Shown here: piece after piece, positions 6,533-41,970 of the stretch
Layout of the letters: each line of letters opens with the position of its first letter
How positions within the stretch are numbered: the stretch's first letter is position 1
Origin: Candidatus Kaiserbacteria bacterium
GTDB taxonomy: Bacteria; Patescibacteriota; Minisyncoccia; Phycocordibacterales; Phycocordibacteraceae
Length of the DNA: 64,000 nt
Assembly (NCBI GenBank): GCA_016217905.1
Contig: JACRFL010000002.1
Coordinates: forward strand, 18,817 to 82,816
Direction of reading: 5' to 3'
The notes under the pieces: model-generated
The model's input: only the letters and a program-made list of their open reading frames with translations
What the model was told of the DNA's origin: nothing
Database searches by the model: none
Translations under genes and position numbers: made by a program

Positions 6533-7903
6533 CTAGTCGCCGTGGCGTTTGTAGCTTTGGATTTTCTTCCCTCCAAACCAGTGATCAATCTCGTGTGCGG
6601 CTTCTTCCGGCGTTTCTGAAGCGTGGAGAATATTCGCTACGGCGCGCTTCTCTGCATTCGCAACCGCCGGTGAATCGTTGGAGAAATCTCCGCGGATGGT
6701 ACCCATATCGGCCTGGTACGGCATCGTCGGTCCGCAAATCTTGCGCACCATGTCCACTGCGTGTGTCCCTTCAACTACCATCTTCACGAGAGGCGCAGAA
6801 AGCATATAGTCTACGAGCCACTTCCGAATCTCGGGACCGATCTCTTCCGGCACCGTGGTGCCGAAGTCCGCCATCGCATCGAATTGGTATTTTTCGTACG
6901 TTACGAGCGTCTTCTCGCCAAGACGCCTAATCCACGCCGCGTCCTTAGGATAGTGGTTATCAACCTCTTCAAATGACGGTTGAAACATCTCGAGCGCAAC
7001 GATCTTGAGATCACGCTGTTCAAAACGCTTTATAACTTCGCCGATGAGGCCTTTCTTCACGCCGTCCGGCTTGATCATTACGTATGTCTTCTCTTCTTTC
7101 GGATTCTTGTTGGCCATGGTTTGAAAAATAAAAGCGCCTGCGGCGGTTATGATACGCGCCCCGCCCTTCTCAAGCAAGATGGTGTGTTCGAAGTGGGCGC
7201 TCCTCGAGCCATCCTTGGTGCGGTAGGTATAGCCGTCGGGAGCTAGGACAACCGCCGCTTTGCCCGCGCTCGCGATGGGCTCGAGCGCGAGCACCATGCC
7301 CTCGGTGAGCAACTCGCCCTTACCCGGGCGGCCGAAGTTCGGAATGAACGGTTCTTCGTGTACGAGGTCGCCGACACCGTGCCCGCCGAGTTCTCTCACC
7401 ACGGTGAATCCCGCCCGCTCAATCTCCTCCTGTATCGCGTGGGAAACATCGCCCATATGATTCCCCGGGACGGCCGCGGCGATGCCCGCCGCAAGCGCGG
7501 CTTCGGTCGCGCGCATAAGCTTCTTGGACACTTCGTCCACCGTGCCCACCGGTACGGTAATCGCCGCGTCGACGACGACGCCCGCGTGGCGCAGGCCGAG
7601 ATCGAGGCCGACGATGTCGCCCTCCTTCAGCGTCTTGGCCGACTCATTCGGAATACCATGCACGACTTCATCGTTAATCGAGACGCACAGCGTCGCCGGA
7701 TACGACCGTCCCGCGCCCTCGGGCGTGTAGCCGAGGAAGCAGGGATCATCGCCTCCGTCGCGGATAAGCCGCTCCGCGAGGTCGTCGAGCTCTTCGGCGG
7801 AAACGCCGGGCGCCACCTTCGCGCGAAGCGCTTTCAACACGGCCGCGAGGCGCTTCCCCGCCTCAATGAGGCTCGCCCGTTCGGTGTCGTTTGCGATTGT
7901 CAT
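6533..7903 (-). CDS. map-ndk: In-frame fusion of methionine aminopeptidase type I (N-terminal about 262 aa, 7118..7903) with nucleoside diphosphate kinase (C-terminal 194 aa, 6533..7117; an internal ATG sits at 7117)
   Basis: MAP metal ligands are present (DIVGLDLG..D, HGVGDLVHE, EHTILL). A linker AAGAFIFQT is followed by MANKN...YVMIKPDGVKKGLIGEVIKRFE...GTIRGDF...NILHASE (NDK catalytic His motif). There is no stop codon between them. Confidence 0.8.
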   Translation of the reverse strand: MTIANDTERASLIEAGKRLAAVLKALRAKVAPGVSAEELDDLAERLIRDGGDDPCFLGYTPEGAGRSYPATLCVSINDEVVHGIPNESAKTLKEGDIVGLDLGLRHAGVVVDAAITVPVGTVDEVSKKLMRATEAALAAGIAAAVPGNHMGDVSHAIQEEIERAGFTVVRELGGHGVGDLVHEEPFIPNFGRPGKGELLTEGMVLALEPIASAGKAAVVLAPDGYTYRTKDGSRSAHFEHTILLEKGGARIITAAGAFIFQTMANKNPKEEKTYVMIKPDGVKKGLIGEVIKRFEQRDLKIVALEMFQPSFEEVDNHYPKDAAWIRRLGEKTLVTYEKYQFDAMADFGTTVPEEIGPEIRKWLVDYMLSAPLVKMVVEGTHAVDMVRKICGPTMPYQADMGTIRGDFSNDSPAVANAEKRAVANILHASETPEEAAHEIDHWFGGKKIQSYKRHGD

Positions 7904-8466
7904 GCGATCTTGAGCGCTGCGTTGATATCGGCGGCGATTTCCTCCGGCGTCTGCTCGCCGTTCACTTCGATAAGCATGCAGGATGTGCGGAACAGCTCGA
8001 TTGCCGGTTCGGTATATTCATAATATTCCTTCAACCGCTCATCAACGACCGCGTCGTCGGCGCGGCTCTCGATCTCTTTTCGAAGATCGAGACGCCGGCG
8101 GACCTCTTTGTCGGAAACCCGGATATTCACAATAATACCCTGCCGTCCGAGCCACGCGAGAGAGTCGATGACGAGCTCGGCCTCCGGTATCTTGCGATTG
8201 AATCCGTCGAAAATGATCCCTCGGTCATCGGGAATTGAAAAGAGGGACTTCAGATAGAGATACATCGCGAACCAATGTGGCTGGAGTTCTCCCGCGTCGT
8301 TTTCGGTTTTTACCTTACGCCCAACCGGCGTGTCCTCTTCTGCAATTTCGCGGAAGAGCTTCCCCGAGGAAAAAACCGTCCAGCCCGTCTTCTGCGAAAG
8401 CAGTTTCGCCTGTGTCCCCTTCCCGCACCCCGGCTTCCCTATAAAAAATATCGTGGGTGTGCCCAT
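7900..8466 (-). CDS. adk: Adenylate kinase (short form, no zinc lid)
   Basis: GKPGCGKGTQA P-loop, plus the G.LFRE and GFNR/DGFPR-type motifs. Confidence 0.9.
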   Translation of the reverse strand: MGTPTIFFIGKPGCGKGTQAKLLSQKTGWTVFSSGKLFREIAEEDTPVGRKVKTENDAGELQPHWFAMYLYLKSLFSIPDDRGIIFDGFNRKIPEAELVIDSLAWLGRQGIIVNIRVSDKEVRRRLDLRKEIESRADDAVVDERLKEYYEYTEPAIELFRTSCMLIEVNGEQTPEEIAADINAALKIA

Positions 8467-8484
8467 CCGCTCACTCTAGCATTT

Positions 8485-9759
8485 TTAGTACTCGCGGAGC
8501 GACACCTGGGCGTCGATCTTGTGGGCGAGGTCGAGAGTGACCTGCACCGCGATGAGAAGCGCCGTGCCGCCGAGAACGAGCGTCGTGACGCCCGTGAGCC
8601 CCTGGATGATGCTCGGCGCGACCGCAAGAAGGCCGAGGAAGACGGCTCCGGGAAGCGTGACGCGATTGACGACCTTGCCGATGTACTCCTCCGTCTCCCG
8701 GCCGGGGCGCACACCCGGAACGAATGCTCCCGATTTTTGGAGATTCTCCGCGACGCGGTGCGGCTCGAACGTGACTGCGGTATAGAAATAGGTGAAGAGC
8801 ACAACGAGCAGGAAGTACGTCGCACCGTAATTCCACGGATTAGAGAGAAATCCTGTGTACCAGAGCGCCGCTCCCGCGGCAAAAGAAACGTGAAGCGCGC
8901 CGAGCATAGAGAGCGCCATCTGCGGCAGGAGAAGGAGGGAGAGCGCGAATATGATGGGGATCACTCCGGCCTGAAGGAGACGGATCGGGAGATACGTCGC
9001 CGCGCCCTGCGAGAGCGCCGCGCCGCGTACCGCGCGCGCGTAGGCGATCGGTATCGAGCGTTCGGCGTCGGAGACGACAACAACCGCGTAGATCATCGCG
9101 AGCGCAAGAAGCGTGAACGCGAGATAGGCGGGGACGCTCGCCGCGGTGGCGGAAAAGAGAGTCTGCGAAATGCTTGAGGGCACTCGAGCGAGGATGCCCG
9201 CGAGAATGATGAGCGACACTCCGTTGCCAATGCCGAACTCGGTCACGAGCTCGCCGAGCCACATGAGAAGCAGGGAGCCGGCAGCGACGAGCGCGATATT
9301 CGCCACAAGCGCCACCGCCCCCAGAGGCGCTATGACGCCCTGTCCCTCGAGCAGGAACAAGAAGCCGATACCCTGCAAAATAGCGATAGGGATTGTGAGT
9401 AGGCGGCTCCACCCGATAAATTTCGCGCGACCTGCCTCGCCTTCCTCAAAGTATGCCTGCTTCACCTGCGGAAAAATAATCGTGCCGAGCTGCATGATGA
9501 TCGATGCGGTGATATAGGGACCGACGCCTAGCATCACGACCGAGAGCTGGGAGAGCCCGCCGCCCGAGAAAATGTTCAGGAGACCGAAAAATTGGTTGTT
9601 CGCAAAGAATGATGCGAGCGCATTTTTATCGACACCCGGGATCGGCACCGACGCGAGAAGGCGGAAGAGCGCAAGCGCCCCGACGAGGAACAGGATCCGG
9701 AAACGAATCTCGGGATCTCCGAAAGAGAGCTTGAGCTTGCGGAAAAAGGAATTAAGCAT
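8485..9759 (-). CDS. secY: Preprotein translocase subunit SecY
   Basis: 10-TM protein with typical SecY N-terminus; sits between rplO and adk. Confidence 0.95.
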   Translation of the reverse strand: MLNSFFRKLKLSFGDPEIRFRILFLVGALALFRLLASVPIPGVDKNALASFFANNQFFGLLNIFSGGGLSQLSVVMLGVGPYITASIIMQLGTIIFPQVKQAYFEEGEAGRAKFIGWSRLLTIPIAILQGIGFLFLLEGQGVIAPLGAVALVANIALVAAGSLLLMWLGELVTEFGIGNGVSLIILAGILARVPSSISQTLFSATAASVPAYLAFTLLALAMIYAVVVVSDAERSIPIAYARAVRGAALSQGAATYLPIRLLQAGVIPIIFALSLLLLPQMALSMLGALHVSFAAGAALWYTGFLSNPWNYGATYFLLVVLFTYFYTAVTFEPHRVAENLQKSGAFVPGVRPGRETEEYIGKVVNRVTLPGAVFLGLLAVAPSIIQGLTGVTTLVLGGTALLIAVQVTLDLAHKIDAQVSLREY

Positions 9760-11197: not shown

Positions 11198-11728
11198 TTA
11201 CACGGCCTTCTTGCCCTGCTTGCGGCGGATGATCTCGCCCTCGTAGCGGACGCCTTTGCCAAGGTACGGCTCCGGTGGCTTGACGCGGCGGACGTTCGCC
11301 GCGAACTGCCCGACCGACTCCTTGTTCGCGCTTTCGAGCGTCATCACGTTCTTCTCCACCTTCGCCGTCATGTCTTCTGGAATGGAGAGCGACACCGGGT
11401 GGGAGAATCCGACGGCGAGCACCACATCCTTCCCTTTCACCTCCATCTTGTAGCCGACGCCGTCGAGCACGAGCTTTTTCACGTATGGAGTTTCGACCCC
11501 TTTCACCATATTTTTCACATGCGACGCGAACGTGCCGGTGAGCGCCTTGGCGAGGCGCGAGCGGTCCTTCGGCGTGACGGAAACGGCACCGCCCTCGATC
11601 GCGATCTCGACCGCAGGATGCACGCGCTTCGTGATTGTGCCCTTCGGGCCCTTCACGGTGAGCACGCCGCTGGACACCGAAACATCGGTCTTCCCTAATG
11701 AGATCGGCTTTTTCGCGAGGCGTGACAT
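11198..11728 (-). CDS. rplF: 50S ribosomal protein L6
   Basis: MSRLAKKPISLGKTDVSVSSGVLTVKGPKG; start taken at the internal Met of the track ORF. Confidence 0.9.
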   Translation of the reverse strand: MSRLAKKPISLGKTDVSVSSGVLTVKGPKGTITKRVHPAVEIAIEGGAVSVTPKDRSRLAKALTGTFASHVKNMVKGVETPYVKKLVLDGVGYKMEVKGKDVVLAVGFSHPVSLSIPEDMTAKVEKNVMTLESANKESVGQFAANVRRVKPPEPYLGKGVRYEGEIIRRKQGKKAV

Positions 11729-17241: not shown

Positions 17242-18045
17242 TTATTTAGACTTCGCCTGCCCTGAGTCTGCCAAACGGGCGCGGGAGAGAAGCGTCTTAA
17301 ACGCCTCCTCCGGCTTCTCAATGATGAGGTACTTGTGGGAAAGCACGTCCACCGGATTGATGTTGCGCAGCTCCTCTGTCGCGACGTTGCCGAAATTGCT
17401 GAAGCTCTTGATCACGTTCGCGTCGTATGCGGAGAGCGCGAGAAGCGCGGCATTCTTTTTCTTCGCAGCAAGCCCGACAGCGTTCGCTCCCTCCGCGAGT
17501 GCCGCGAGCACCATCTTCGCGGCACGTGTCTTCGGCGACGTAAACGCGAACGTGTCCACGAGGATTATCTCGCCGTCTTTCGCCTTCCTTGAGAGCGCCG
17601 AGAGAAGGGCGCCAACGCGCATCTTCTTGTTTATCTTCTCGCTGTAGTCGCGGGTCGAGCGCGGACCGAAGGTGATGCCGCCGTGGCGCCAGATCGGCGA
17701 GCGGCTGGAGCCGTGGCGGGCTTGCCCGGTGCCTTTCTGCTTCCACGGCTTCTTGCCGCCGCCTGCAACCTCGGAACGATCCTTGGTGTGGGCGCGGTTC
17801 TGGCGCAGGTTCGCCTGCATTGCGGTCGTGACCTGGTGTACCAGGTCGCCTTTCCAGGACATGCCGAAGATGCTCTCCGGGAGCGCAATAGAGCCGACCT
17901 TCTTGCCGTCCATCGAGAAAATAGAATGTTCAAGCGAAGAGCCAGCGGGAGAAAAACCGGTAGTAGGACTCGGCCTAGCGGCCCGGAGCGCGACCGGTTT
18001 TTTTCCTGCTGGTGATTTCTCGACGATTTTTTTAGCGGTAGCCAT
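17242..18045 (-). CDS. rplD: 50S ribosomal protein L4, with an N-terminal extension
   Basis: GGGKKPWKQKGTGQARHGSSRSPIWRHGGITFGP. Confidence 0.95.
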   Translation of the reverse strand: MATAKKIVEKSPAGKKPVALRAARPSPTTGFSPAGSSLEHSIFSMDGKKVGSIALPESIFGMSWKGDLVHQVTTAMQANLRQNRAHTKDRSEVAGGGKKPWKQKGTGQARHGSSRSPIWRHGGITFGPRSTRDYSEKINKKMRVGALLSALSRKAKDGEIILVDTFAFTSPKTRAAKMVLAALAEGANAVGLAAKKKNAALLALSAYDANVIKSFSNFGNVATEELRNINPVDVLSHKYLIIEKPEEAFKTLLSRARLADSGQAKSK

Positions 18046-18046
18046 A

Positions 18047-18676
18047 TTATGCAGAAATTACTTCAAGCAGAGTGCCGCGGCGGCCCGGCACGGCGCCGCT
18101 GACGATAATCTCGCCCGCTTTCGCGTCGACGGCGAGCACTTTGAGATTCGTCACGGTCACGCGATCGCCGCCCATGCGGCCGGCCATGCGCATGCCCTTG
18201 GCGACTCTGCCGCCCGCGCGGCCGCCTGAGCCGCCGATAGAACCGGGGCTGCGCTCGGTATGCTTCTGGCCGTGCGAACGCGGGCCGCCGTGGAAGCCGT
18301 GGCGCTTCACTACGCCGGCGAAGCCCTTGCCCTTGGTGAGACCCGAGACCTGCACGACATCTCCCACTGCAAAAATATTTGCACTGATTTCATCTCCCAC
18401 TGCCGCCTGCCCCTGCTCACTTTCGCCGGACAATCTAAACTCTTTGATTGCCTGAAATCCCCTGCCTTTGGTGTGTCCCAAGACTGGCTTGGTGATGTTT
18501 TTGATCTTACGCGCGCCTTGGCCGACCTGAATCGCCGCGTACCGATCCTTGCCCTCTTTCGCCTTGACCTGCGTAACGACGACCGGGTCGGCGGCAAGGA
18601 TAGTTCCCGCGCGGGCACGACCATCCTCCCCGAACACTCGGGTCATTCCTTCTTTCTTGGCGAGAATGAATTTCAT
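18047..18676 (-). CDS. rplC: 50S ribosomal protein L3
   Basis: MKFILAKKEGMTRVFGEDG...GKGFAGVVKRHGFHGGPRSHGQ. Confidence 0.95.
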   Translation of the reverse strand: MKFILAKKEGMTRVFGEDGRARAGTILAADPVVVTQVKAKEGKDRYAAIQVGQGARKIKNITKPVLGHTKGRGFQAIKEFRLSGESEQGQAAVGDEISANIFAVGDVVQVSGLTKGKGFAGVVKRHGFHGGPRSHGQKHTERSPGSIGGSGGRAGGRVAKGMRMAGRMGGDRVTVTNLKVLAVDAKAGEIIVSGAVPGRRGTLLEVISA

Positions 18677-18820
18677 TAAAGCAAATCGCGCCACAGCAAT
18701 CGCTTGGCGCGATTTGCTGGAGGTCCCTTAGGGGACATAGCGATCTCGCTACTCTACACGACCAGCTTAAAACACGCAACCGCCCTTACGAGCGGTTGCG
18801 TGTTTTCTTGGTCGTCTGCT

Positions 18821-19246
18821 TTAAACCATTTTTACATCGATCGTGACTCCCGAGGGGAGATTGAGGTTCGTGAGGGCCTCGATCACCTTCGGCGAGGGAT
18901 TCAGGATATCGATGAGGCGCTTATGGATGCGCATCTCGAACTGCTCTCTAGCGTCCTTGTGGACAAAGGTGGAGCGGTTCACCGTCCAGCGCTTGATCTC
19001 GGTCGGGAGCGGGACCGGGCCAACGACGACGGCGTCGAAGCGAGCGGCGGTGTCCATGATCTGCTTCACCGAGAGATCAAGGATCTTGTGCTCGTAGGCG
19101 CGGACGCGGATACGGAGCTTGTGTTCCGCAGCCGGGGCGACCGGAGCGGCCTTCTTCTTCGGCACCGTCTTCTTCGCTACAGCCTCTGTCGTCTTCTTAA
19201 CGGCGTGCTTGGCCGGCCTCTTCGCTTTAGTCGCAGTCTCGGGCAT
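18821..19246 (-). CDS. rpsJ: 30S ribosomal protein S10, with a Lys/Ala-rich N-terminal extension of about 37 aa
   Basis: HKLRIRVRAYEHKILDLSVKQIMDTAARFDAVVVGPVPLPTEIKRWTVNRSTFVHKDAREQFEMRIHKRLIDIL. Confidence 0.95.
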   Translation of the reverse strand: MPETATKAKRPAKHAVKKTTEAVAKKTVPKKKAAPVAPAAEHKLRIRVRAYEHKILDLSVKQIMDTAARFDAVVVGPVPLPTEIKRWTVNRSTFVHKDAREQFEMRIHKRLIDILNPSPKVIEALTNLNLPSGVTIDVKMV

Positions 19247-19254
19247 TGTAGTGA

Positions 19255-20454
<1,200 letters not shown>

Positions 20455-20597
20455 AGTAATTATCGATAATATTCTAATAAATCACGAATATTCCGACGCC
20501 TGTCTGCGCAGGCAGGTGAGTCGGAACAAACTCCTAAGCTTGCCGACTCACAAAAAGCAGACAAGCCAAAGAGCGACGCCAAGATGCGTTAGGAGCA

Positions 20598-20625
20598 CTA
20601 TACGAGAAGGCTTCGGGAAATGCAA
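20598..20625 (-). promoter_or_regulatory. Candidate sigma70-like promoter for tuf (TTGCAT-17 bp-TATAGT, minus strand)
   Basis: Hexamers read on the minus strand in the fusA-tuf spacer. Downstream is a 5' UTR of about 135 nt containing a 9-bp stem (GTGAGTCGG...CCGACTCAC). Confidence 0.3.
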
Positions 20626-20654
20626 CTCGCCACGGGGATAAAATAGAGTGGAAG

Positions 20655-20744
20655 ATTACTTCCTACTCGCGATGATGTCTTGGGCGATATTGTTCGGGAC
20701 AGTGTCGTAGTGGTCGAATTCCATGGTCATCGAGCCGCGGCCTT
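20655..20744. repeat. Relic duplicate of the fusA 3' end (90 bp, 100% identical to 21293..21382)
   Basis: Direct sequence comparison. It encodes ...[30 protein letters not shown], identical to the EF-G C-terminus. Confidence 0.9.
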
Positions 20745-20747
20745 TTG

Positions 20748-21014
20748 TTAGATACGGTAAATCCAACTGTGCGGCCCGCAAGTGAGAAATAGCGCGGTCG
20801 AGGCGTCGAGCCAACGGAAAATAATCCGATACTGTCGATTGATCCTGAAACTCCAAAGTTCGCGCTGTTTCGGATGCAACTTTTCGGTATGCAGTGACGG
20901 ATGGTAAGGATTCTCGCTGAACAATATCCATTTCTTATGTGCTTGCTTCCGCACTGCGGCGGGCAATTCGGCAAAACGCCTTTCGAATTCAAAAGTGGTC
21001 TCGACCGCGATCAT
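20748..21014 (-). CDS. Type II toxin, RelE/ParE superfamily
   Basis: ENPYHPSLHTEKL...ELWSFRINRQYRIIFRWLD...CGPHS matches the RelE/ParE core (..L.enP.....kL.......R....YRiiy.......Ih.igpH). Overlaps the upstream antitoxin by 4 nt. Confidence 0.7.
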   Translation of the reverse strand: MIAVETTFEFERRFAELPAAVRKQAHKKWILFSENPYHPSLHTEKLHPKQRELWSFRINRQYRIIFRWLDASTALFLTCGPHSWIYRI

Positions 21015-21244
21015 GCGGCGCGAATTTTGCTGGGCATATGTACCCGGTGACTACGCCCAGCGTGGTAGTCGGCTTCGGCACGTGTCACACTCGCGAGGAA
21101 CTCCGGATTGAATAAACCAAAGGAAGCTGCGAGTCGCTCCAAGCGGTCGGCGTCAAGCTCAAGCACAAGCTTATGGCTCTTCGAATTTTTCGAACGAATG
21201 GTGGCAGCAATGCGGTTCATGTCCACAGTATAACACGCCTTCAT
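21011..21244 (-). CDS. Putative antitoxin partner of the RelE/ParE toxin (small; family uncertain)
   Basis: 77-aa ORF immediately upstream of, and translationally coupled to, the toxin. Located in the low-GC insert. The start may be the internal MNRIAATI. Confidence 0.45.
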   Translation of the reverse strand: MKACYTVDMNRIAATIRSKNSKSHKLVLELDADRLERLAASFGLFNPEFLASVTRAEADYHAGRSHRVHMPSKIRAA

Positions 21245-21293
21245 GAATTAAAGAAAATCGCCCAGGATTGATGAGTACGGCGTATCGGCCAAA

Positions 21294-23441
21294 TTACTTC
21301 CTACTCGCGATGATGTCTTGGGCGATATTGTTCGGGACAGTGTCGTAGTGGTCGAATTCCATGGTCATCGAGCCGCGGCCTTCGGTCATGGAGCGGAGTG
21401 TGGTGGTGTAGCCGAACATCTCCGAGAGCGGCACCTTTGCATGCACGACCTTGTTCATCCCGCGCTCTTCCATTCCTTCTATCTGCGCGCGCTTCCCGGA
21501 GAGGTTACCGGTGATGTCGCCCATGAACTGGTCCGGCACGACGACCTCGACGCGCATAATCGGCTCGAGAATGACCGGCTTCGCTTTCTGCGCCGCTTCC
21601 TGAAAGGCCATCGACGCGGCGATCTTGAAGGCGATTTCGGATGAGTCGACGTCGTGGTAGCTGCCGTCATAGAGGTCGACCGAGATGTCGACCATCGGGA
21701 AGCCGGCCAGATATCCGCGCGACATCGCCTCGCGCACGCCCTTCTCCACCGCCGGAATATATTCCTGCGGGACGACACCGCCCTTGATGTTGTTGACGAA
21801 TTCGAAATGATCCTCGCGAGTAACGTTCTTCGCCACTTTCGCTTCCGGATCGACCGGCTCCATCTTCTTCATCTTGATCTTCACGTGGCCGTACTGACCG
21901 CGGCCGCCGGTCTGCTTGATGTACTTCCCTTCGGCCTCCGAGGAGCCGAGAATCGTCTCGCGATACGCCACTTGCGGCTTGCCCACGTCCGCGACGACGT
22001 TGAATTCGCGCTTCATGCGGTCAACGAGAATTTCAAGGTGCAGCTCACCCATGCCGGAAATGATGGTCTCGTTCGTCTCCTCGTCGGTCTTGATGCGGAA
22101 GGTCGGGTCCTCGTCGCTAAGCTTCCTGAGCGCGATGCCCATCTTCTCCTGGTCGGCCTTTGTCGAGGGCTCGATGCGGAGGCTGACAACTGGTTCGGGG
22201 AATTTGATCTGCTCAAGCACGATAGGGCTCGCCTCGTCGCAGAGCGTGTGCGAGGTCTTCGTATCCTTCAGTCCCACCGCGGCGGCGATCTCCCCGGTGA
22301 ACACCTTTTCGACTTCTTCGCGCTTGTCGGCCTGGAGCCGGACGATGCGGCCAACGCGCTCCTTCGAGCCGGTCGTCGAGTTGTAGACGTAGGAACCGGC
22401 GGTGAGGGTACCCGAATACACGCGGAAGAAGGTCAGCGCGCCGACGAAAGGATCGGTCTGGAGTTTGAACGCGAGCGCACAGAACGGCTCGTCGTCGGAG
22501 GCGTGGCGCTCGATCGGCTCGCCGGTTTTCGGGTTCGTGCCGGTTGCGGGCGGCAGGTCCAAGGGCGACGGTAGATAGTCGACGACCGCGTCGAGCACGA
22601 GCTGTACTCCCTTGTTCTTGAGCGCGCTCCCGCAGTAGACGGGGAAGATTTCGTTATTGACGACCGCCTTGCGCAGGATCGCTTTCAATTCTTCAACGCT
22701 CGGCTCTTTGCCCTCGAGATAGGCGCTCATCGCTTTGTCATCCTGCTCGACGATGCGCTCGATAAGATCGGCGCGATACTTCTTCGCATCTTCGAGAAGG
22801 TTCGCCGGAATCTCGCCCTCAATCACCTCCTCACCCATATTCCCAGAGAAGGTATACGCCTTCATCGCGAGCAAGTCGACGACGCCCTCATGCGCGCTCT
22901 CCTCGCCGATGGGGATCTGCATGCGGATGGCCTTTTTCGAGAGACGATCAAGGATGCTCGCGTAGGAGCGCTCGAAGGAGGCGCCGACGCGATCGAGCTT
23001 ATTGATGAAACAGACGCGCGGTACCTGCGCCTCATCCGCATAGCGCCAGTTGGTCTCGGACTGAGGCTCTACCCCCGCCACCCCGTCGAAGACGACGATC
23101 GCGCCGTCAAGCACGCGCATCGAGCGCTTCACCTCGGCGGTGAAGTCGATGTGGCCGGGAGTGTCGATGATATTGAAGCGAAATTTCTTGGTCGTATCCT
23201 TCTTGTCGGACTCGCCGGTCTTTGTCCAGAAACAGGTGATGGCGGCGGCGGTGATGGTGATGCCGCGCTCGCGCTCCTGCTCCATCCAGTCGGTCGTTGT
23301 CTCGCCCTCATGCACCTCGCCGATCTTGTGCTGGCTACCCGTATAGAAAAGCACGCGCTCGCTGGTCGTCGTCTTGCCCGCGTCGATATGCGCGATGATG
23401 CCGAAATTGCGTACTTTCTCTAACGGATAGTCTCTGTTCAT
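21294..23441 (-). CDS. fusA: Elongation factor G
   Basis: [18 protein letters not shown] and NKLD G-motifs; complete domains I-V. Start set at the [15 protein letters not shown] Met. Confidence 0.97.
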
Positions 23442-23572
23442 AAAGTTTCTAAAAAATAATCCGCCAGCTGGCGGACGCCGAAGCGTTATCAACAGAATAG
23501 CCGAAATGAGAGAAATTGCAAAGTGCAGGTATGCGCAGTAAGATTTAAGAGGAGTTCAAACGAGGAAAAAAG

Positions 23573-23788
23573 ATGGGGAGACTGAAACCAGATTCTGTCG
23601 AGCACATGCTTGGAAGAGCTGATTACTTTGCAGGGCTGGTAACGGAAACGTCTGATCCAGTGTACTGGCCACCGGAAAGGATCCGAGAGGCACTCGCGGT
23701 ATTGCGCCCTGCACGGGACCTCAGGCATGCGACATACGCAACAGCTTGTGCCGCGGCCGAATGTGTAGAGTTCAAGGCAGCGTATTGA
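23573..23788 (+). CDS. Small hypothetical protein (71 aa) inside the hicAB insert
   Basis: GAGGA-type RBS 8 nt upstream. Followed by the terminator at 23811..23835. No recognisable domain. Confidence 0.35.
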   Translation: MGRLKPDSVEHMLGRADYFAGLVTETSDPVYWPPERIREALAVLRPARDLRHATYATACAAAECVEFKAAY

Positions 23789-23810
23789 AGCCTCGCTTCT
23801 CCCATTAACC

Positions 23811-23835
23811 AAAAAACCCGCGTTCCGCGGGTTTT
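23811..23835. terminator. Bidirectional intrinsic terminator (AAAAAACCCGCG-TTC-CGCGGGTTTT)
   Basis: GC stem of 6 bp flanked by an A-run and a T-run. Lies between the hicA/rpsG relic and fusA. Confidence 0.6.
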
Positions 23836-23885
23836 ACATTATTCAAAATCCCTCGACGTCGCCAGGGATGATTTTGTAAACAAAA

Positions 23886-23939
23886 TCACCACGCGAAGTG
23901 GGCGAAGGCCTTGTTGGCGTCGGCCATGCGGTGCATCAT
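23886..23939. repeat. Relic duplicate of the rpsG 3' end (54 nt; about 48/54 identical to 24563..24616, all differences synonymous or in the stop codon)
   Basis: The minus-strand reading gives MMHRMADANKAFAHFAW*. The genuine S7 C-terminus is EMHRMADANKAFAHFAW*. Confidence 0.75.
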
Positions 23940-24172
23940 TTGCCTTGCAACAATTTCAAAAATTCATCCGCTGATATTTTCGCCTGCCTAAGAATGCTGG
24001 CCAAGTCCTTGCGTGATATATCGCGCGAATGACGCGGCACCGTTGCAAATCGTGTCGGATCAGCGGCGTGCCGTAGAAATACGTGACTTCCCTTCTGTCT
24101 AATAATCGTGAACCCCGCCTTAAGGAGCGCGGCGATGATTGTCGCCGCACGAAGCATCGGCAAAATGCTCAT
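23936..24172 (-). CDS. hicA: HicA-family toxin (mRNA interferase)
   Basis: LLKAGFTIIRQKGSHVFLRH...TVPRHSRDISRKDLASILRQAKIS matches the HicA consensus (..GF...RQKGSH......G...TVP.H...L..G.L.SIL.QAGL). Confidence 0.8.
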   Translation of the reverse strand: MSILPMLRAATIIAALLKAGFTIIRQKGSHVFLRHAADPTRFATVPRHSRDISRKDLASILRQAKISADEFLKLLQGK

Positions 24173-24468
24173 GCGTATACGGTAACTGGACCGGCTATTC
24201 TTGCAGTTTTACCCTTTCCGGTTATGTGTCCTTCATCATCAATAACTATTTTTCCGTCATCGAATGCAATTTCGCACAGTCCTTCAATAAGGTCATTCGC
24301 CATGTATTTTGCGTCAGCAAGAGTGGAACCTTGCGTCATTGTTTTTTGAAAGCTTGGGACTTCTACAAGATATAATTTGTCAGACCGGTCATACCATATG
24401 AGCGCATTAAAAATGCCATATTTAGTCTTGATAAGATATTTCCTTTTCATCCGCCAAGTATAGCACAA
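24169..24468 (-). CDS. hicB: HicB-family antitoxin (N-terminal RNase H-like HicB domain)
   Basis: KYLIKTKYGIFNALIWYDRSDKLYLVEVPSFQKTMTQGSTLADAKYMANDLIEGL is close to the HicB N-domain consensus. Overlaps hicA by 4 nt. Start may be the internal MKRKYL. Confidence 0.65.
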   Translation of the reverse strand: MCYTWRMKRKYLIKTKYGIFNALIWYDRSDKLYLVEVPSFQKTMTQGSTLADAKYMANDLIEGLCEIAFDDGKIVIDDEGHITGKGKTARIAGPVTVYA

Positions 24469-24562
24469 CGGCCAATTTTGATTACTACCAAGTGAGTGAG
24501 CGAAAAGAAATTCCTATTTCACTTTTCGAACGAACGCGGGGAGGAAGCTTTGTCCTCAAAGC

Positions 24563-25027
24563 TTACCACGCGAAGTGGGCGAAGGCCTTGTTCGCATCCG
24601 CCATGCGGTGCATCTCGTCCTTCTTCTTAATTGCATCGCCCTCGTTCTTGGCGGCGAGGAGGAGCTCGGCGGCGAGCTTCTCCGCCATCGGCTTCCCTTT
24701 CTTCGCGCGTGCCGCGGTAATCAACCAGCGGAAGGAGAGAGCGAGGCGCCGATTCTGCGGCACTTCCCGCGGCACCTGGTAGTTCGCCCCGCCGACGCGT
24801 CGCGAGCGGACCTCCATCAGGGGCGAAACGTTGCGCAGCGCCGCTTCGAAGGTCTCGAGCGGGTCGGCGCCGCCTTCTTTAACCGCGGCGAGCGCGTCGT
24901 AGACAACCGCGCGGGCGGTGTCCTTCTTCCCGTCCCACATGACCGCATTGATAAAGCGGGTGAGCGTCTCCGAGCCGTAGGTGAGGTCGGGGCGCCAGGT
25001 ACGCTTCTTTTTAAGGGGTCGGCGCAT
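24563..25027 (-). CDS. rpsG: 30S ribosomal protein S7
   Basis: FINAVMWDGKKDTARAVVYDAL...VGGANYQVPREV. Confidence 0.95.
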   Translation of the reverse strand: MRRPLKKKRTWRPDLTYGSETLTRFINAVMWDGKKDTARAVVYDALAAVKEGGADPLETFEAALRNVSPLMEVRSRRVGGANYQVPREVPQNRRLALSFRWLITAARAKKGKPMAEKLAAELLLAAKNEGDAIKKKDEMHRMADANKAFAHFAW

Positions 25028-25028
25028 G

Positions 25029-25442
25029 TTATTTTGCCGACGGGCGCTTCGCGCCGTAGCGCGAGCGGGCGGTGCGGCGCTTCTCGAGACCGCTTGTGTC
25101 GAGCTTGCCGCGCACGATGGTGTACTGCACGCCGATGTCCTTCACCCTGCCGCCGCGAAGCATCACGACCGAGTGTTCCTGGAGATTGTGCCCCTCGCCG
25201 GGAATGTAGGCGGTGACTTCCATCCCGTTGGTGAGGCGGACGCGGGCGATCTTGCGGATGGCGGAGTTCGGCTTCCTCGGAGTCTTGGTAGTCACCTTGG
25301 TGCATACGCCACGCTTAAAAGGCGAAGGATAGTAGGTCGGACGATTCGCGAGCGCATTAAAACCGCGGGCCAAGGCGGGCACGCTCGTCTTCGACGATTT
25401 CGACTTTCGCCCCCTCTTGGAGAGCTGGTTGATGGTGGACAT
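25029..25442 (-). CDS. rpsL: 30S ribosomal protein S12
   Basis: [15 protein letters not shown]...[19 protein letters not shown]...[14 protein letters not shown]. Confidence 0.97.
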
Positions 25443-25572
25443 TTAGAAAAAGAAGACCCGAGGTGGGTCACAAGCAATATAAAGGAATGGTGAGAGGAAT
25501 GCAACTTGGGCAGGCCGTAGGGAAAGTGGTTTGAATCTTTCCCGCATTTTCCTACAGACTACAATCTACTCC

Positions 25573-26235
25573 CTACAAACTATTTTCATCGATCGGCTCG
25601 CGGTAAGGGTCGGACGAGTACGCTCTTGGGAGCGCGGGGTTCGCGGGCGTGACGGGAATCGCGGCGGGGCGGGGCGGGGCGGGAGGTTCTGTCTGCAGTA
25701 TAGGAGGGGCGAATCGCGGTTCCGGAATCCGCGGCGGGACCTTGTTGAACTCGATATGCGGCTCCTCGTGATCCTCGAGCAGCCGGTCGCTCTCCATCGA
25801 CCTCGGAGTTGGGGAGGTCTGACCTTCCCCACTACTCACGGGAGGTTGCGGGGGTTGCGGAATGTAGCGCGGCGCTGGCGCGCTCATCGCCCGCGGCGCC
25901 GAGGGCGGTGCCGCGCCCCTCCGCTCCTCTTCCCGCAGCGGTACGAAGATCTGAGCATTGACATCCTGCACGATGCCGTCGACGGTCTCCCGGTCGAGAT
26001 GTGCCTCCTCGGCAAGCGCCTGAACGAACTCGTCCGGGTTCTCGACACCCATCAGGAGCAACATTATTTCTCGCTCGAGCACGCCGCCCTGATCGATGCG
26101 CAAACCGTACTTGGTCATCATATTCCTTGCGACTGCCGTATATCTCCCCTGCGTGAGATATGTGCGTATCACCGGCGGCAAGGTCTGCATCACTTGCTTG
26201 ACATCATCCTCTAGATTTTGGTTTTGTGGATCCAT
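25573..26235 (-). CDS. Hypothetical protein: globular N-terminal domain of about 105 aa plus a Pro-rich, low-complexity C-terminal half
   Basis: PPxPP-rich tail (APPSAPRAMSAPAPRYIPQPPQPPVSS...). Last gene of the four-gene operon upstream of rpsL. Confidence 0.5.
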   Translation of the reverse strand: MDPQNQNLEDDVKQVMQTLPPVIRTYLTQGRYTAVARNMMTKYGLRIDQGGVLEREIMLLLMGVENPDEFVQALAEEAHLDRETVDGIVQDVNAQIFVPLREEERRGAAPPSAPRAMSAPAPRYIPQPPQPPVSSGEGQTSPTPRSMESDRLLEDHEEPHIEFNKVPPRIPEPRFAPPILQTEPPAPPRPAAIPVTPANPALPRAYSSDPYREPIDENSL

Positions 26236-26252
26236 ACGTAATGTATCTCCGA

Positions 26253-28331
26253 TTACGGCTTTGGGGCTGCGGGTGCAGATGTCTTAGCTCTATCCTCTGC
26301 CTCTTTTTCCTCCCGCGCCATCTCCTTAATAAGTTCCTCCAATTTGTCTTTATTGGGTTTCGAGGTCCTGATTTTCTTAGCCGCCTCCGAACCGCCCGGA
26401 CCAAATAGTGCCCAACCTGCTAGCGAGCCTTCGATATTCTTGGCGTACTGCTCGCGACGGGCTTTTGCGCCAGCGGGCCTGACCTCGCTTTCTTTCTTCG
26501 CCTCGATACTTTTTTCAACATTCGTTTTTGCTTCCGTTGCTTTTGAAAGTTCTTCTTCGGTCTTCGTAACCTTCTCAAGCGCTCTCACGACACCGGCTTC
26601 AGCAGCCATAAGCTTTTCTTGATTTTTCGGGTCTGTGTCCCAATAACGATCCCCCCTCTTTTCTTCCGCAATACGGTCGCGCTCTTTGGTCGCCGTATCG
26701 TGCTCGCTCTTTGCCATATCATGCGAGCCTTGTGCCGTTGTCCGCTTTATTTCTGCATCCTTTATGGCCTTATCCTCTTCCCTCGTATTCTCTGTACGCG
26801 CCGTCTCGCGTCCTGTAAGAGATTTTGCGTACTCTTCGTGTCCCTTAACAGACTTTTCCTGTCGCGCTCGATATCCGCCCTTCTGCGCTGCTCCAGCGTC
26901 AACACCGCCGTATGGCAGTTTCCCTAGTACTCCTGTACCGCGCACGTCAAAACTCGCTTTCGCTCCACGATCGAATGTGCTGGCCAGCAAGCGTCCTCTC
27001 TTAGTTTCGCCCCAGCTGCTTGAACGAACCTTGCGCGAGAGATACTGCGACCCTGCTCCCACCGTAGAGCGCATGCCAAAAGCGGTCGCGCCGAACGTGA
27101 GCTTGCCGGCAAGCTTCGTCGCTCCGGCGGCGCCGAAGGCGGAGATCTTTTTCGAGACGATAACGACCGCGAGGAGGAGTCCCATCGCGACGAGGAAGGA
27201 GAGCATCAGACTCGCGAAGCCAGTCAGATCGTTACCGCCCACAAATCCTGTCCAATCTTTCGTACACGTTGCGCCCGGAGTGGACGGGGCGCAAATGCCG
27301 GTTAAGAAATTGACATCGGTGATGACCGCGAGCGCGATGTAAAGCAGGAGGAGGAGTACCGGCGCGGTGATGGTCTGTTCAAAGAGCGTGCTCCACCACT
27401 TCCCTGCCGAGCTCGCGAGCTTGGGCACCGCGAGCCCGGCGAAGCCGATGGGCGCGATAATAATAAGGAAGAGGAGTATGACAAACCGCGCGATGAGCAC
27501 GAACGCGAGCGAGAACATCACGAATGCCGTGATCAGGAAGAGAATGGTGCCCATAAAGCCGATAATCCAGGAGTTTCCCGATGTGAATACCCCTGTATTC
27601 ACCCTCCCTTGGCCGTAGATACTTTGTAGCCCAATCTGGTCCATAATCTTGTTTGAAATACCTTCGTTTTCGGGCGAGGTATTTAACTTGGCTAAAAAGT
27701 CGGGGGTCACCGGGTTACCGCCGTTAATCTGGGTGAAAAATTGCGTCGCGAAGAGGTTCCCGGTGTCGATAACCGCCTCGGCAAAAAAGAGCGAGAAGTT
27801 GAGGAAGACCGCGGCGACCAAGAGCATCGGGAGCATCTTCTTCCCGTAGCCGAGCCGTTCGGTGTTGAGAATGATGGAGATGCCGACCGCGAGGAAGCCG
27901 AAGATGAGCACGATGTTGCCGATGTCGCGCAGGATTCTCCAGGTGACGCCGACGGCGGAGAGCTTGTTCACGTAGTCCCCCATCGTGACGACGGTGAAGT
28001 ACACCGCGTAATCGAGCGTCATAGCCGCGACACCGACGAGCCACGCGAAGAGGCTCATGATCCAGGTCATAATTTTACCGAACCCCTCGCCAAGATCGCT
28101 GCTCGGCGGGAGCGTGCTCGGCGTTCCGGCGGCGGGGTTACTCTGGCTCACGTAATTCTCCGAAGTTACGCAGGTGCCATCTACCTGGTAGACCCCGCCA
28201 CCGGAGCCCGGTGCGCCCAGATCGCACGCCTGCCCGGGCCGGGGCTCGGCATGCGCGACGGGAGTACCCACGCCCGCCGCACCGACGAGGAGCACAAGAG
28301 CGACGAACGATGATGATAAGAAGCGCCGCAT
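26253..28331 (-). CDS. Large polytopic membrane protein (692 aa): signal peptide, Cys-containing exported N-domain, about 7 TM helices, and a C-terminal Lys/Glu/Arg-rich coiled-coil tail of about 270 aa. Topology resembles VirB6/TrbL-like proteins.
   Basis: N-terminal signal MRRFLSSSFVALVLLVGAAGVGTPVAHA. Multiple hydrophobic helices. Tail KSEHDTATKERDRIAEEKRGDRYW...EELSKATEAKTNVEKSIEAKKESE... ending APAAPKP. No ATPase motifs. Confidence 0.55.
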   Translation of the reverse strand: MRRFLSSSFVALVLLVGAAGVGTPVAHAEPRPGQACDLGAPGSGGGVYQVDGTCVTSENYVSQSNPAAGTPSTLPPSSDLGEGFGKIMTWIMSLFAWLVGVAAMTLDYAVYFTVVTMGDYVNKLSAVGVTWRILRDIGNIVLIFGFLAVGISIILNTERLGYGKKMLPMLLVAAVFLNFSLFFAEAVIDTGNLFATQFFTQINGGNPVTPDFLAKLNTSPENEGISNKIMDQIGLQSIYGQGRVNTGVFTSGNSWIIGFMGTILFLITAFVMFSLAFVLIARFVILLFLIIIAPIGFAGLAVPKLASSAGKWWSTLFEQTITAPVLLLLLYIALAVITDVNFLTGICAPSTPGATCTKDWTGFVGGNDLTGFASLMLSFLVAMGLLLAVVIVSKKISAFGAAGATKLAGKLTFGATAFGMRSTVGAGSQYLSRKVRSSSWGETKRGRLLASTFDRGAKASFDVRGTGVLGKLPYGGVDAGAAQKGGYRARQEKSVKGHEEYAKSLTGRETARTENTREEDKAIKDAEIKRTTAQGSHDMAKSEHDTATKERDRIAEEKRGDRYWDTDPKNQEKLMAAEAGVVRALEKVTKTEEELSKATEAKTNVEKSIEAKKESEVRPAGAKARREQYAKNIEGSLAGWALFGPGGSEAAKKIRTSKPNKDKLEELIKEMAREEKEAEDRAKTSAPAAPKP

Positions 28332-39365: not shown

Positions 39366-40286
39366 ATGAACGTCGAAAACGCGAAACGGCAATTTCTTGA
39401 ACACACCGAGATAGAGCGCGGCCGCGCAGTGAAGACCGTCGAGAACTACGACCGCTACCTTTCGCGCTACTTCGCGCAGATGGATATCAAAGACATCGGC
39501 GACATCAGCGAAGAGAGCGTCCGCGCATTCCGCCTTTGGCTCAACCGCCAGCCGGGAACGAATACCGACTCAATGAAGCGCCGCACGCAGAATTACTACA
39601 TGATCGCGCTCCGTGCTTTTTTGAAGTTCCTCCGGAAGCGCGATGTCGAGGCCATCAGTCCTGAGAAAATAGAGCTTGCGAAGCTCCCCGAGCGCCAGCT
39701 CGACCTTATTACCACGGCCGAGCTTGAGCGGCTTATGCAGGCGCCGCGGGAGGCGTTTGAAAAGGAAAAGGATCCCGATAAAGCAAGGAATTATTTGCGC
39801 GACCGTGCCATCCTCGAACTCCTCTTCTCGACCGGGCTGCGCGTGTCCGAGCTCTGTTCGCTTAATTCCGATATCGACCTATCGCGCGACGAGCTCTCGG
39901 TGCGTGGCAAGGGCGAGAAGGTGCGCGTCGTCTTCCTCTCGAGCGCTGCCAAGGAGGCGGTGCGGAATTATTTGAAAGCGCGAGACGACATGGAGGAAGC
40001 GCTCTTTGTCGACGGGCGGCCGAACAAGCTGCACCGCATTATCCCGCGTGACATCCAGCGGCACTTGAAGGCGTACGTCGCGCGCGCGGGCATCACAAGC
40101 GTGGTCACTCCCCACACCCTTCGCCACGCCTTTGCGACCGACCTGCTCTCTAACGGCGCCGATATCCGCTCGGTCCAACAGCTCCTCGGCCACGCCTCCA
40201 TCAACACCACGCAGATCTACACGCACATCACCGACAGTCATTTGCGAGAAATACACAAGAAGTACCACTCGCGTTCGAGAGGTTAG
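39366..40286 (+). CDS. xerD: Tyrosine site-specific recombinase XerC/XerD family
   Basis: N-terminal SAM-like core-binding domain. Catalytic region with R...HTLRHAFATDLLSNGADIRSVQQLLGHASINTTQIYTHI (R-H-R-Y). Confidence 0.85.
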   Translation: MNVENAKRQFLEHTEIERGRAVKTVENYDRYLSRYFAQMDIKDIGDISEESVRAFRLWLNRQPGTNTDSMKRRTQNYYMIALRAFLKFLRKRDVEAISPEKIELAKLPERQLDLITTAELERLMQAPREAFEKEKDPDKARNYLRDRAILELLFSTGLRVSELCSLNSDIDLSRDELSVRGKGEKVRVVFLSSAAKEAVRNYLKARDDMEEALFVDGRPNKLHRIIPRDIQRHLKAYVARAGITSVVTPHTLRHAFATDLLSNGADIRSVQQLLGHASINTTQIYTHITDSHLREIHKKYHSRSRG

Positions 40287-40700: not shown

Positions 40701-41471
40701 ATGAAAATCGTCTCGTGGAATGTAAATGGTCTGCGCTCGCTCGCCAAGGACGGCTACTGGGAATCCTTCTTGAAGGGCATAAAGCCGGACATCTTCTGCT
40801 TGCAAGAGACCAAGGCGAACCCGGAGCAGCTCGGAGAGGAGTTCCTCTCTCCTGACGGCTACTCGGCATTTTTCTCCTCTTGCCGGGTACGCAAGGGTTA
40901 CAGCGGCGTCGCATTGTATTCAAAGATTGAGCCTCTCAAAGTTATTTACGGCCTGGGAATACAGGAATTTGACCAAGAAGGTCGCTTTATCGGCGCTGAA
41001 TACGAAGACTTCTGGCTCTTAAACGCGTACTTCCCCAACGCCGGTCAAGGCCCCGAGCGGCTTGATTACAAATTGCGTTTCTATGACGCCTTCCTCGCAT
41101 TCGCGGAGAAATTGCGCGAACAAAAGCCGGTCATTTTCTGCGGTGATGTGAACACCGCACACGAGGAGATAGACCTCGCCCGGCCCAAAGAAAATGACGC
41201 AAACACTGGCTTTCTCCCCGAAGAGCGCGCCTGGATAGACGAGGTCGTGAGCGCCGGCTACGTCGACTCCTTCCGCCATTTCCATCCCCACACCAAGGAG
41301 GCCTACAGCTATTGGGACTTGTTTACCCACGCCCGCGACAGAAACATCGGCTGGCGTCTCGACTACTTCTTCGTCGCGAGTGAATTTATAAAACATATTA
41401 AAAAAGCCGAGATCCACCCAGACATTTACGGCTCCGACCACTGCCCTGTCTCGATTACCATCTCTTCTTAA
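40701..41471 (+). CDS. xth: Exodeoxyribonuclease III (AP endonuclease, EEP family)
   Basis: MKIVSWNVNGLRS..., QETK, ..GDVN..H..IDL.., SYW and a C-terminal GSDHCP motif. Confidence 0.9.
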   Translation: MKIVSWNVNGLRSLAKDGYWESFLKGIKPDIFCLQETKANPEQLGEEFLSPDGYSAFFSSCRVRKGYSGVALYSKIEPLKVIYGLGIQEFDQEGRFIGAEYEDFWLLNAYFPNAGQGPERLDYKLRFYDAFLAFAEKLREQKPVIFCGDVNTAHEEIDLARPKENDANTGFLPEERAWIDEVVSAGYVDSFRHFHPHTKEAYSYWDLFTHARDRNIGWRLDYFFVASEFIKHIKKAEIHPDIYGSDHCPVSITISS

Positions 41472-41717
41472 TTATTTATACGTATACGTAGTATCGTTCC
41501 TTCGACCGACAAATTCGATTTTGACCGTGTTGTGTGTGGTATAAGAAAAAATGACCCGGATATCGCCCTTCCGCACGCGGTACATATTTTCCGTTCCTTT
41601 GAGTTTTTTCACATTCAACCCGATGAGATCATTGCGGCTTAAACGCGCGATTAGGATATTCAGAGATTCACGCTCCTTCTTTGTCAGTGAGTTGAGAAAT
41701 TTATTTATTTTTTGCAT
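41472..41717 (-). CDS. Type II toxin, RelE/ParE superfamily
   Basis: NMYRVRKGDIRVIFSYTTHNTVKIEFVGRRND matches YRVRVGDYRIIY...VGHR. Its stop codon abuts the xth stop. Confidence 0.7.
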   Translation of the reverse strand: MQKINKFLNSLTKKERESLNILIARLSRNDLIGLNVKKLKGTENMYRVRKGDIRVIFSYTTHNTVKIEFVGRRNDTTYTYK

Positions 41718-41970
41718 CGAATCGCTTCATTGCAGTAATAAATTTATCTATTGACATACCGCCTTCCTTTCTGAAATCGACAACCGTCTCCCAAGTGCCC
41801 TCGTCACCCCACTCGTCCACTGGGACCAGCTTGAAGACCGGCCGAGAGCGGCGTACGACCGTAAACGATTTGCCCTGTTCCGTCTGGCGAATATAGGTAC
41901 TCATATTCTCCCGGAGCTCCTTGAGCCCGATAATCCGCTGTACCTTTTTTGTTGCGATAGCCATATGCAC
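41701..41970 (-). CDS. Phd/YefM-family antitoxin
   Basis: IGLKELRENMSTYIRQTEQGKSFTVVRRSRPVFKLVPVDEW matches the Phd/YefM N-domain. Overlaps the toxin start. Confidence 0.65.
   Translation of the reverse strand: MHMAIATKKVQRIIGLKELRENMSTYIRQTEQGKSFTVVRRSRPVFKLVPVDEWGDEGTWETVVDFRKEGGMSIDKFITAMKRFDAKNK

Follow-up and report, generated by a model that had tools for sequence, protein, structure and literature searches.

A displaced rpsG tail behind a hicBA cassette in Candidatus Kaiserbacteria suggests capture of a foreign gene end together with a toxin–antitoxin module

A 64-kb stretch of Candidatus Kaiserbacteria DNA (contig JACRFL010000002.1, positions 18,817 to 82,816; hereafter the window, W) carries a compact hicB–hicA cassette between rpsG, which encodes ribosomal protein S7, and fusA, which encodes elongation factor G (EF-G); directly behind the cassette stands a second copy of the end of rpsG, here termed the tail relic. 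We consider it probable, at roughly 0.6, that the cassette and a foreign gene tail were captured together by a homology-dependent process and that toxin–antitoxin (TA) addiction has since held them in place. A first-pass annotation of this DNA had placed a hicB–hicA cassette between the two genes, and its account of the layout is borne out: the elements lie on the minus strand, with a convergent antisense open reading frame (ORF) on the plus strand (Table 1). The low-GC block that it described is likewise real, at 0.39–0.47 across hicB and 0.53–0.55 across hicA against 0.60–0.70 in the flanks, and the insert between the two copies of the rpsG tail measures 677 nt. Labels of the form L001, L009 or L100 denote the contigs and relatives compared with the window.

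The two tails are close to identical (47/50 nt between 23888–23937 and 24565–24614; 48/54 over the 54-nt spans), which upholds the second copy of the rpsG end reported behind hicA. All three internal differences (GCG>GCC, GAT>GAC and GCG>GCC) are synonymous, and the stops are TAA in the functional gene and TGA in the relic, whose ATG overlaps the hicA stop (TGATG). A chance match is discounted because repeats of this kind are few: the whole 64 kb holds only eight families of direct repeats (28 nt or longer, copies no more than 6 kb apart), and three of the eight are gene-tail repeats flanking TA cassettes.

The sequences that follow the two copies belong to different backgrounds. In L017, L003, L019 and L030 the native rpsG end and its spacer line up collinearly with the relic plus the 44 nt behind it; the spacer itself (23842–23885) is 82–95% identical to the post-rpsG sequence of these four. 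The functional tail with its TAA stop, together with the module behind it (element E, described below), matches instead the rpsG end (TAA) and following sequence of L012, L014, L007 and L041. A further relative, L009, has no hicBA and yet has in common with the window a TGA-stop relic, the terminator and a homologue of the 71-residue antisense ORF. Because the relic and its flank match native rpsG ends and the L009 module, we infer from these alignments that the older, resident layout is the one on the relic side, and the functional rpsG tail would have come with the cassette. A sliding comparison of rpsG for a recombination breakpoint had relatives of no more than 85% identity to work with, which are too remote for one to be resolved. 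The first-pass annotation had taken the duplicated rpsG end in relatives free of any insert as grounds for its own rejection; the relatives in which the end of rpsG or fusA is duplicated have an insert, though not this one, L009 being a borderline case in which 112 nt of non-coding DNA separate the rpsG stop from a 17-nt relic. An ancestral regulatory repeat was considered and rejected, the relic being absent from insert-free relatives.

The join between hicA and the relic is found well beyond the window. The Logan assembly of SRR12113407 (L001) runs from rpsG through the spacer and hicBA into the relic, of which it has the first 33 nt, variant bases included, before its contig breaks within the repeat; an ENA contig (L094) and a JGI contig (L100) also carry the junction, with substitutions, which places the junctions in four independent assemblies. 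In the window, L094 and L100 the join is the same (GGCAA[A/G]T[G/A]AT[G/C]CACCGCATGGCC). Between the window and L100, identity is 86.4% for the block that starts at the −10 box and ends a little beyond the relic stop, as against 82.8% for rpsG and 79.3% for fusA. This excess similarity over the flanks points to cassette and relic having moved as a unit after the host lineages split.

A search with S7 returned 80 species-level Patescibacteria relatives, mostly Candidatus Kaiserbacteria and Paceibacteria, whose S7 proteins are 61–95% identical to that of the window. Across about 70 species, rpsG and fusA are separated by 5 to 5,719 nt, and fusA and tuf by 121 to 3,354 nt. The ten closest species (S7 92–95% identical) have no hicBA and several have rpsG–fusA gaps as short as 39–130 nt, so that hicBA is indeed an insertion, as had been proposed. 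Comparison of 175 ORFs from these gaps with Pfam gave cell-wall hydrolases, Panacea, PIN, HicA, HepT/MNT and RelE/ParE TA families and assorted housekeeping proteins; no integrase or transposase is among the families listed for them. The rpsG–fusA and fusA–tuf junctions are clade-wide hot spots for the insertion of accessory genes. Two loci carry repeats of other kinds: the 5.7-kb rpsG–fusA gap of L076 (Nomurabacteria) holds three copies of an 86–172-nt repeat (7708–7877, 8348–8519 and 11572–11657), and in L091, next to a hicBA homologue, 35-nt direct repeats (4636–4670 and 5296–5330) flank a two-gene cassette immediately upstream of tpiA. Since the L091 repeats are non-coding, repeat-flanked cassettes are not limited to gene tails.

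Displaced tails recur both within the window and among relatives. Behind fusA, a second cassette with an antitoxin-like gene and a RelE/HigB-like toxin gene is bounded by two copies of the fusA tail, and a TGTTATACT box lies 6 nt upstream of its antitoxin ATG at 21220. Behind xth, a third cassette (a Phd/YefM antitoxin and a weakly matching ParE/RelE-like toxin) is bounded by tails that give different but plausible C termini (PASISL for the relic, against PVSITISS). Homologues of both second-cassette genes (46–50% identity) occupy the fusA–tuf gap of the distant L079, where there is no relic. Tail relics of fusA follow unrelated inserts in L050, L028, L024 and L003, and those of rpsG occur in L030, L009, L024, L094 and L100. 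The L100 locus is an array: rpsG, a Panacea TA pair, a zinc-ribbon ORF, relic 1, hicBA, relic 2, the terminator, the antisense ORF and fusA. The window, L100 and L024 have one start position in common for their rpsG relics; other rpsG relics begin at −17 to −30, and fusA relics at −47 to −139. Unrelated toxin genes in L024 (1649–1700) and the window (23936–23940) both end in TGATGCA.

Eight pairs of relic and functional tail, from the window genome and six related species, were compared by codon position. Differences at positions 1, 2 and 3 number 12, 5 and 56, so that 56/73 (a fraction of 0.77) fall at the third position (P = 4e-14 against 1/3); the corresponding fraction for true orthologous tails between species is 0.76 for fusA and 0.91 for rpsG. 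All eight relics are free of insertions and deletions, keep the reading frame and have a stop codon at the orthologous position. With an orthologue-like third-position fraction and intact frames and stops, the tail copies look like alleles that diverged as working gene ends in different lineages, as opposed to copies decaying in place. Copies that diverged in separate lineages cannot date an insertion by their identity, and the suggestion that the rpsG event is older because its tails are more diverged does not follow. An insertion that itself copied 50–150 nt, by a transposition-like event or by repair of a staggered break, and left the downstream copy to drift as non-coding DNA would suit the repeats that look like fresh duplications (100% over 90 nt at fusA of the window; 98.6% over 139 nt in L050) and repeat lengths that vary as staggered breaks would make them. 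We hold it highly improbable: a neutral relic drifting beside a constrained gene should show, on our estimate, about 45% of its differences at the third position at most, and the 77% observed exceeds this clearly (P = 3e-8); frameshifts are lacking, stops are retained, and the sequences after the two rpsG copies are different native haplotypes. Target duplication of the transposon type was rejected on the codon-position test.

An assembly artefact, in which sequences from two strains or species would have been falsely fused at a conserved k-mer to give the repeat, is very unlikely, to the point of being negligible. The DNA is almost certainly metagenome-derived and one independent contig (L001) ends inside the repeat, yet the hicA–relic junction recurs in three further assemblies from separate projects, two of them with sequence variation, and a chimeric jump from the hicA stop to the middle of the rpsG tail would itself require an existing junction. 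Site-specific integration at the rpsG 3′ end is a more serious contender, though still an unlikely one. Here an integrative element with a replacement tail, or a cis-mobilizable remnant of one served by an integrase acting in trans, would have left the two tails as attL and attR. Direct repeats do flank the insert, the target gene is intact, the tail in use and the relic resemble separate alleles, as if the element had brought its own, and in two different cassettes (window and L024) the junction with the rpsG relic falls on one and the same nucleotide; ribosomal protein genes are documented targets of 3′-end integration that leaves direct repeats on either side (PMC4701971), and a tyrosine recombinase gene is present in the window (39366–40283). 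Against this, the 677-nt insert encodes neither integrase nor excisionase, neither is among the Pfam families listed for the 175 gap ORFs, and the sole recombinase in the 64 kb has the architecture and size of XerC/D. Three target genes (rpsG, fusA and xth) are affected in one window, fusA relic starts vary from −47 to −139 nt, and the repeats reach 139–157 nt where att identity is typically 2–60 bp. Plain exchange of the whole rpsG–fusA interval by double crossover, with a cassette and relic made earlier elsewhere, draws on the junction common to L094 and L100, on a cassette more similar between genomes than its flanks, on the variable content between conserved genes and on the precedent of Neisseria (PMC3787668). 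It leaves the origin of the relic unexplained, as it does the many origins with different cassettes and boundaries; being more a mode of spread than of origin, it is compatible with homology-dependent capture and, taken as the whole account, seems improbable. An integron cassette was also considered and rejected: the window has no IntI-type gene, and the cassette stops at the hicA stop, with no attC-like imperfect inverted repeat at its end.

Under homology-dependent capture, recombination would have brought in the cassette along with the final ~50 nt of a foreign rpsG. This incoming tail (TAA stop and its own downstream spacer) would then complete the functional gene, and the resident tail (TGA stop, native spacer, terminator and antisense ORF) would be pushed downstream intact to become the relic; the same process could have produced the fusA and xth relics of the window and the fusA and rpsG relics of other species. 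The flanking direct repeats could delete the insert, and an addictive TA module would be selectively retained. For the first junction, a single crossover of a circular fragment and break repair that copies a foreign template and finishes by end joining would both fit. These routes need only homologous recombination and DNA uptake, functions reported to be common in Patescibacteria, which carry genes for homologous recombination and competence and whose horizontally acquired regions are dominated by ribosomal proteins, rpsL and tuf (PMC12455944). We infer both the direction of transfer and its dependence on homologous recombination. Several points weigh against this history. The assignment of the foreign copy comes from flanking collinearity at rpsG only, nearest-neighbour tests of the tails (fusA included) being uninformative, and the functional tail of L003 looks native. 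The toxin stops of L024 and the window overlap the Met138 codon of the displaced S7 tail at the identical nucleotide, which hints at a site preference that homology by itself would not predict; chance, microhomology and translational coupling are candidate causes. Homologues of hicBA in other contexts show no flanking repeats, so that the tail repeat is not obligatory to the cassette. We found no recombination intermediate, empty site or donor genome, and an exact-match metagenome scan for relic plus spacer, as an empty site would have them, gave no match. The tails share 50–157 nt at 72–100% identity, a poor RecA substrate at high divergence. A bolder form of the idea, possible but doubtful, is that integrase-free cassettes treat the 3′ end of an essential host gene as an attachment site that travels with them. 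A unit made up of tail, short spacer and cassette would leave as a circle through recombination of the two tail copies and re-enter the same conserved gene of another species by single crossover, building integron-like arrays in which displaced tails separate the cassettes, with TA addiction selecting against loss; if true, portable-tail cassettes would give Patescibacteria a general way of gaining genes.

The cassette itself encodes a recognizable toxin. HicA matches PF07927 at 59 bits (cut-off 27; E 4.9e-16), with residues 11–66 covering profile positions 3–58 of 58, and contains RQKGSHVFLRH, which sets a histidine in the G-S-H context; this histidine is catalytic in HicA. A look-up of the exact HicA sequence found no record. 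The upstream gene, whose stop overlaps the hicA start by 4 nt (ATGA), gave no Pfam match at E<0.1 and no NCBIfam match at E<1, so that of the two assignments in the first-pass annotation that of HicA stands by profile, and that of HicB, missed by both collections, stands by fold and homologues. Its 73 homologues (~93 aa) in Patescibacteria include several named HicB by NCBI or JGI; a profile of the family matched only HicB entries 6hpb and 6u0i in the PDB (E about 0.5); and an AF2 model (pLDDT 91.9) searched with Foldseek against the PDB gave HicB or HicB-like TTHA0281 for all of its best 14 matches (probability up to 0.99, root-mean-square deviation 1.4–1.8 Å across 54–56 columns). What follows the long helix in the model is a pair of short strands, a single short helix and a tail of low confidence, and no C-terminal ribbon-helix-helix (RHH) or helix-turn-helix (HTH) DNA-binding domain is present in its 93 residues. 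Since names, profile, model and structural matches agree, the partner is, as modelled, a short HicB: the N-terminal, partial RNase H-like toxin-binding domain without the DNA-binding domain.

The start of hicB is more likely the ATG at 24450. An extended −10 box lies 6 nt from it, and a TGnTATAMT box occurs 6–7 nt before hicB homologues in four other genomic contexts (five in all); a matching box also precedes the antitoxin of the second cassette of the window. This spacing suggests a leaderless or nearly leaderless mRNA. The insert can thus be read as a compact type II TA module with its own putative promoter, its TA function being predicted. In E. coli hicAB the toxin gene comes first; here the antitoxin gene does, on an mRNA that is apparently leaderless. 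Compared with the HicAB systems of E. coli (6hpb), Burkholderia pseudomallei (6g26) and Streptococcus pneumoniae (5yrz), the module has in common the HicA domain with its GSH motif, the N-terminal fold of HicB and two small overlapping genes; it differs in a 93-residue HicB that lacks the C-terminal RHH or HTH domain, like the stand-alone TTHA0281 (2dsy), and that the Pfam and NCBIfam HicB models miss. Taken alone, hicBA is an ordinary, if short, TA module.

Between rpsG and hicB, the spacer contains a hairpin (GCTTTG-AGGA-CAAAGC) with no U run after it and the module we call element E (24478–24552, minus strand; about 70–85 nt), which has GC-rich conserved flanks, an A/T hairpin with compensatory changes and a −10-like end in TTGGTAGTAAT (24481–24487). 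Element E stands directly 3′ of rpsG in five species (the window, L012, L014, L007 and L041), in inverted orientation ahead of fusA or tuf (some 33 nt away) in L024, L067, L026 and L008, and within the tuf leader of L007 and L014. It has no Rfam match, and gives the impression of a small promoter module that is mobile or portable.

On the fusA side, the strong hairpin at 23811–23835 noted earlier proves well founded: its folding energy is −15.2 kcal/mol (z = −2.7) for the minus strand and −14.8 kcal/mol (z = −5.3) for the plus, with T runs on both strands, and L009 has a terminator at the same place with a compensatory stem change (G-C to C-G; CCCGCC/GGCGGG). It is, as predicted from GC-rich hairpin and U run, a convincing bidirectional intrinsic terminator. 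The antisense ORF ahead of fusA also holds, with a good ribosome-binding site (GAGGA 6 nt before the ATG). A pairwise comparison with the ORF that L009 has at this position gave 53% identity across 32 aa; a database search brought no further homologue and Pfam no match, and the ORF at the same place in L094 does not match it. Because both features occur in L009, which is without hicBA, terminator and antisense ORF belong to an older module that is no part of the hicBA event.

The same annotation had supposed that the insert and its terminator split the classic str transcription unit, a view that the relatives contradict. Strong terminator hairpins lie between rpsG and the fusA box in insert-free L010, L013, L037 and L041, and promoter-like boxes before fusA and tuf are conserved in most relatives. 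Most of about 70 relatives carry GCTATTST-N7-9-AACGCC..GGCGC-TTTTTATTTTT 15–20 nt upstream of fusA, whatever the gap length; a near-palindrome at this box (AACGCCnnGGCG) may serve as an operator or form a 5′ hairpin. A TTGCAT...TATAGT promoter-like pair precedes tuf (window 20500–20620, minus strand), whose leader of ~110 nt contains the hairpin GAGTCGG...CCGACTC and is 94–97% conserved in some species, above the neighbouring coding DNA. The tuf leader has no Rfam match and is possibly an unrecognized regulatory RNA; an Rfam search of 18000–27000 at E up to 1 returned nothing relevant. As a strict sigma-70 scan of 19000–26500 gave zero sites (the same scan missed the terminator at 23811–23835), statements about promoters rest on conserved motifs. 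Since fusA and tuf have their own promoter-like boxes and several insert-free relatives have terminators after rpsG, the str genes of this clade seem to be natively separate, probably as three transcription units, and this separation may be why insertions between them are tolerated.

The sole tyrosine recombinase gene of the window (39366–40283, plus strand) encodes a XerC/D-like protein of 306 aa, with a SAM-like N domain and a catalytic domain, and lies 340 nt upstream of xth, the gene with the duplicated tail, and 15 kb from the hicBA insert. A small free-standing gene at 54660–55010 (plus strand) encodes a 117-residue GIY-YIG nuclease (PF01541, E 1e-13). Such nucleases could in principle supply the DNA breaks for one of the insertion models.

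Table 1. Features of the rpsG–fusA interval and of the two further tail-flanked cassettes, in window coordinates
Feature	Position	Strand	Basis or remarks
rpsL	25029–25442	minus	
rpsG (ribosomal protein S7), functional	24563–25027	minus	PF00177, E 5.7e-55; end ...EMHRMADANKAFAHFAW, stop TAA
Functional copy of the repeated rpsG tail	24565–24614	minus	repeat family D4/D3; 47/50 nt to relic
Post-rpsG spacer with hairpin and element E	24474–24562	minus	
Extended −10 box TGcTATACT	24457–24465	minus	6 nt upstream of hicB ATG
hicB-like antitoxin, 93 aa from ATG 24450	24169–24450	minus	longest ORF 24169–24468, 99 aa
hicA toxin, 78 aa	23936–24172	minus	PF07927; RQKGSH motif
rpsG tail relic	23886–23939	minus	sequence comparison; MHRMADANKAFAHFAW, stop TGA
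Native-type post-rpsG spacer, two small hairpins	23842–23885	minus	fold energy −14.6 kcal/mol
Predicted bidirectional intrinsic terminator	23811–23835	both	folding; AAAACCCGCG-GAA-CGCGGGTTTTTT
Antisense 71-aa ORF, convergent with hicA	23573–23788	plus	GAGGA 6 nt upstream of ATG
fusA promoter-like box and leader	23442–23500	minus	TATTCT 23494–23499, AACGC, hairpin 23459–23476, T run, ATG 23441
fusA (EF-G)	21294–23441	minus	
Second instance (fusA–tuf): functional fusA tail	21293–21382	minus	90 nt, 100% identical to relic
Second instance (fusA–tuf): fusA tail relic	20655–20744	minus	90 nt, 100% identical to functional tail
Second cassette: antitoxin-like ORF	ATG 21220	minus	
Second cassette: RelE/HigB-like toxin	20748–21014	minus	
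Third instance: xth tail and xth tail relic	41427–41471 (tail); 42029–42067 (relic)	plus (tail)	relic encodes YGSDHCPASISL and stop
Third cassette: Phd/YefM antitoxin and weak ParE/RelE-like toxin	41472–41970	minus	opposite to xth

Patescibacteria have tiny genomes with few recognizable mobile elements, and how they gain genes is poorly understood. The rpsG, fusA and tuf junctions emerge as landing pads, each landing being able to leave an intact displaced tail whose codon-position pattern marks its origin in another lineage. Tail relics therefore offer a simple marker, readable from sequence, with which recent transfers between species could be found and counted in uncultured bacteria. Landing pads of this kind may also explain why ribosomal proteins, rpsL and tuf dominate the acquired regions that have been reported, and the probable three-unit str operon of this clade affects annotation that relies on operons. 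A limited search of the open-access literature found no description of the displaced-tail pattern in Patescibacteria.

The nearest parallels come from three quite different settings. The minimal mobile elements of Neisseria (Saunders and Snyder 2002, described in PMC3787668) likewise place different whole-gene cassettes between the same conserved genes without a recombinase of their own, and their exchange has been proposed to proceed by homologous recombination in naturally competent bacteria; the rpsG–fusA locus behaves like such a site, with movement by recombination in the flanks as the putative route, although an extra intact copy of the 3′ tail and stacked cassettes are no part of the definition in PMC3787668. 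Integrative and conjugative or mobilizable elements (ICEs and IMEs) of streptococci at rpsI, rplL, rpmG and guaA carry a replacement tail, and have in common with the present inserts the 3′ end of an essential gene as target, an intact gene and flanking direct repeats (PMC4701971, PMC5357655). They differ in that the inserts described here have no integrase and no transfer or mobilization genes, measure 0.5–1 kb with one or two genes, show variable crossover boundaries and occupy three target genes within 64 kb. In fungal mitochondria (atp6 and cob; Endoconidiophora, PMC6279837), a mobile ORF downstream of the gene is similarly followed by a partial duplicate of its C terminus; there free-standing homing endonuclease ORFs make the DNA break, whereas HicA- and RelE-type toxins cut RNA and the inserts encode no nuclease. 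What sets the present arrangement apart from all three is the combination of cassettes that bring no recombinase or nuclease of their own with intact displaced tails that are able to stack.

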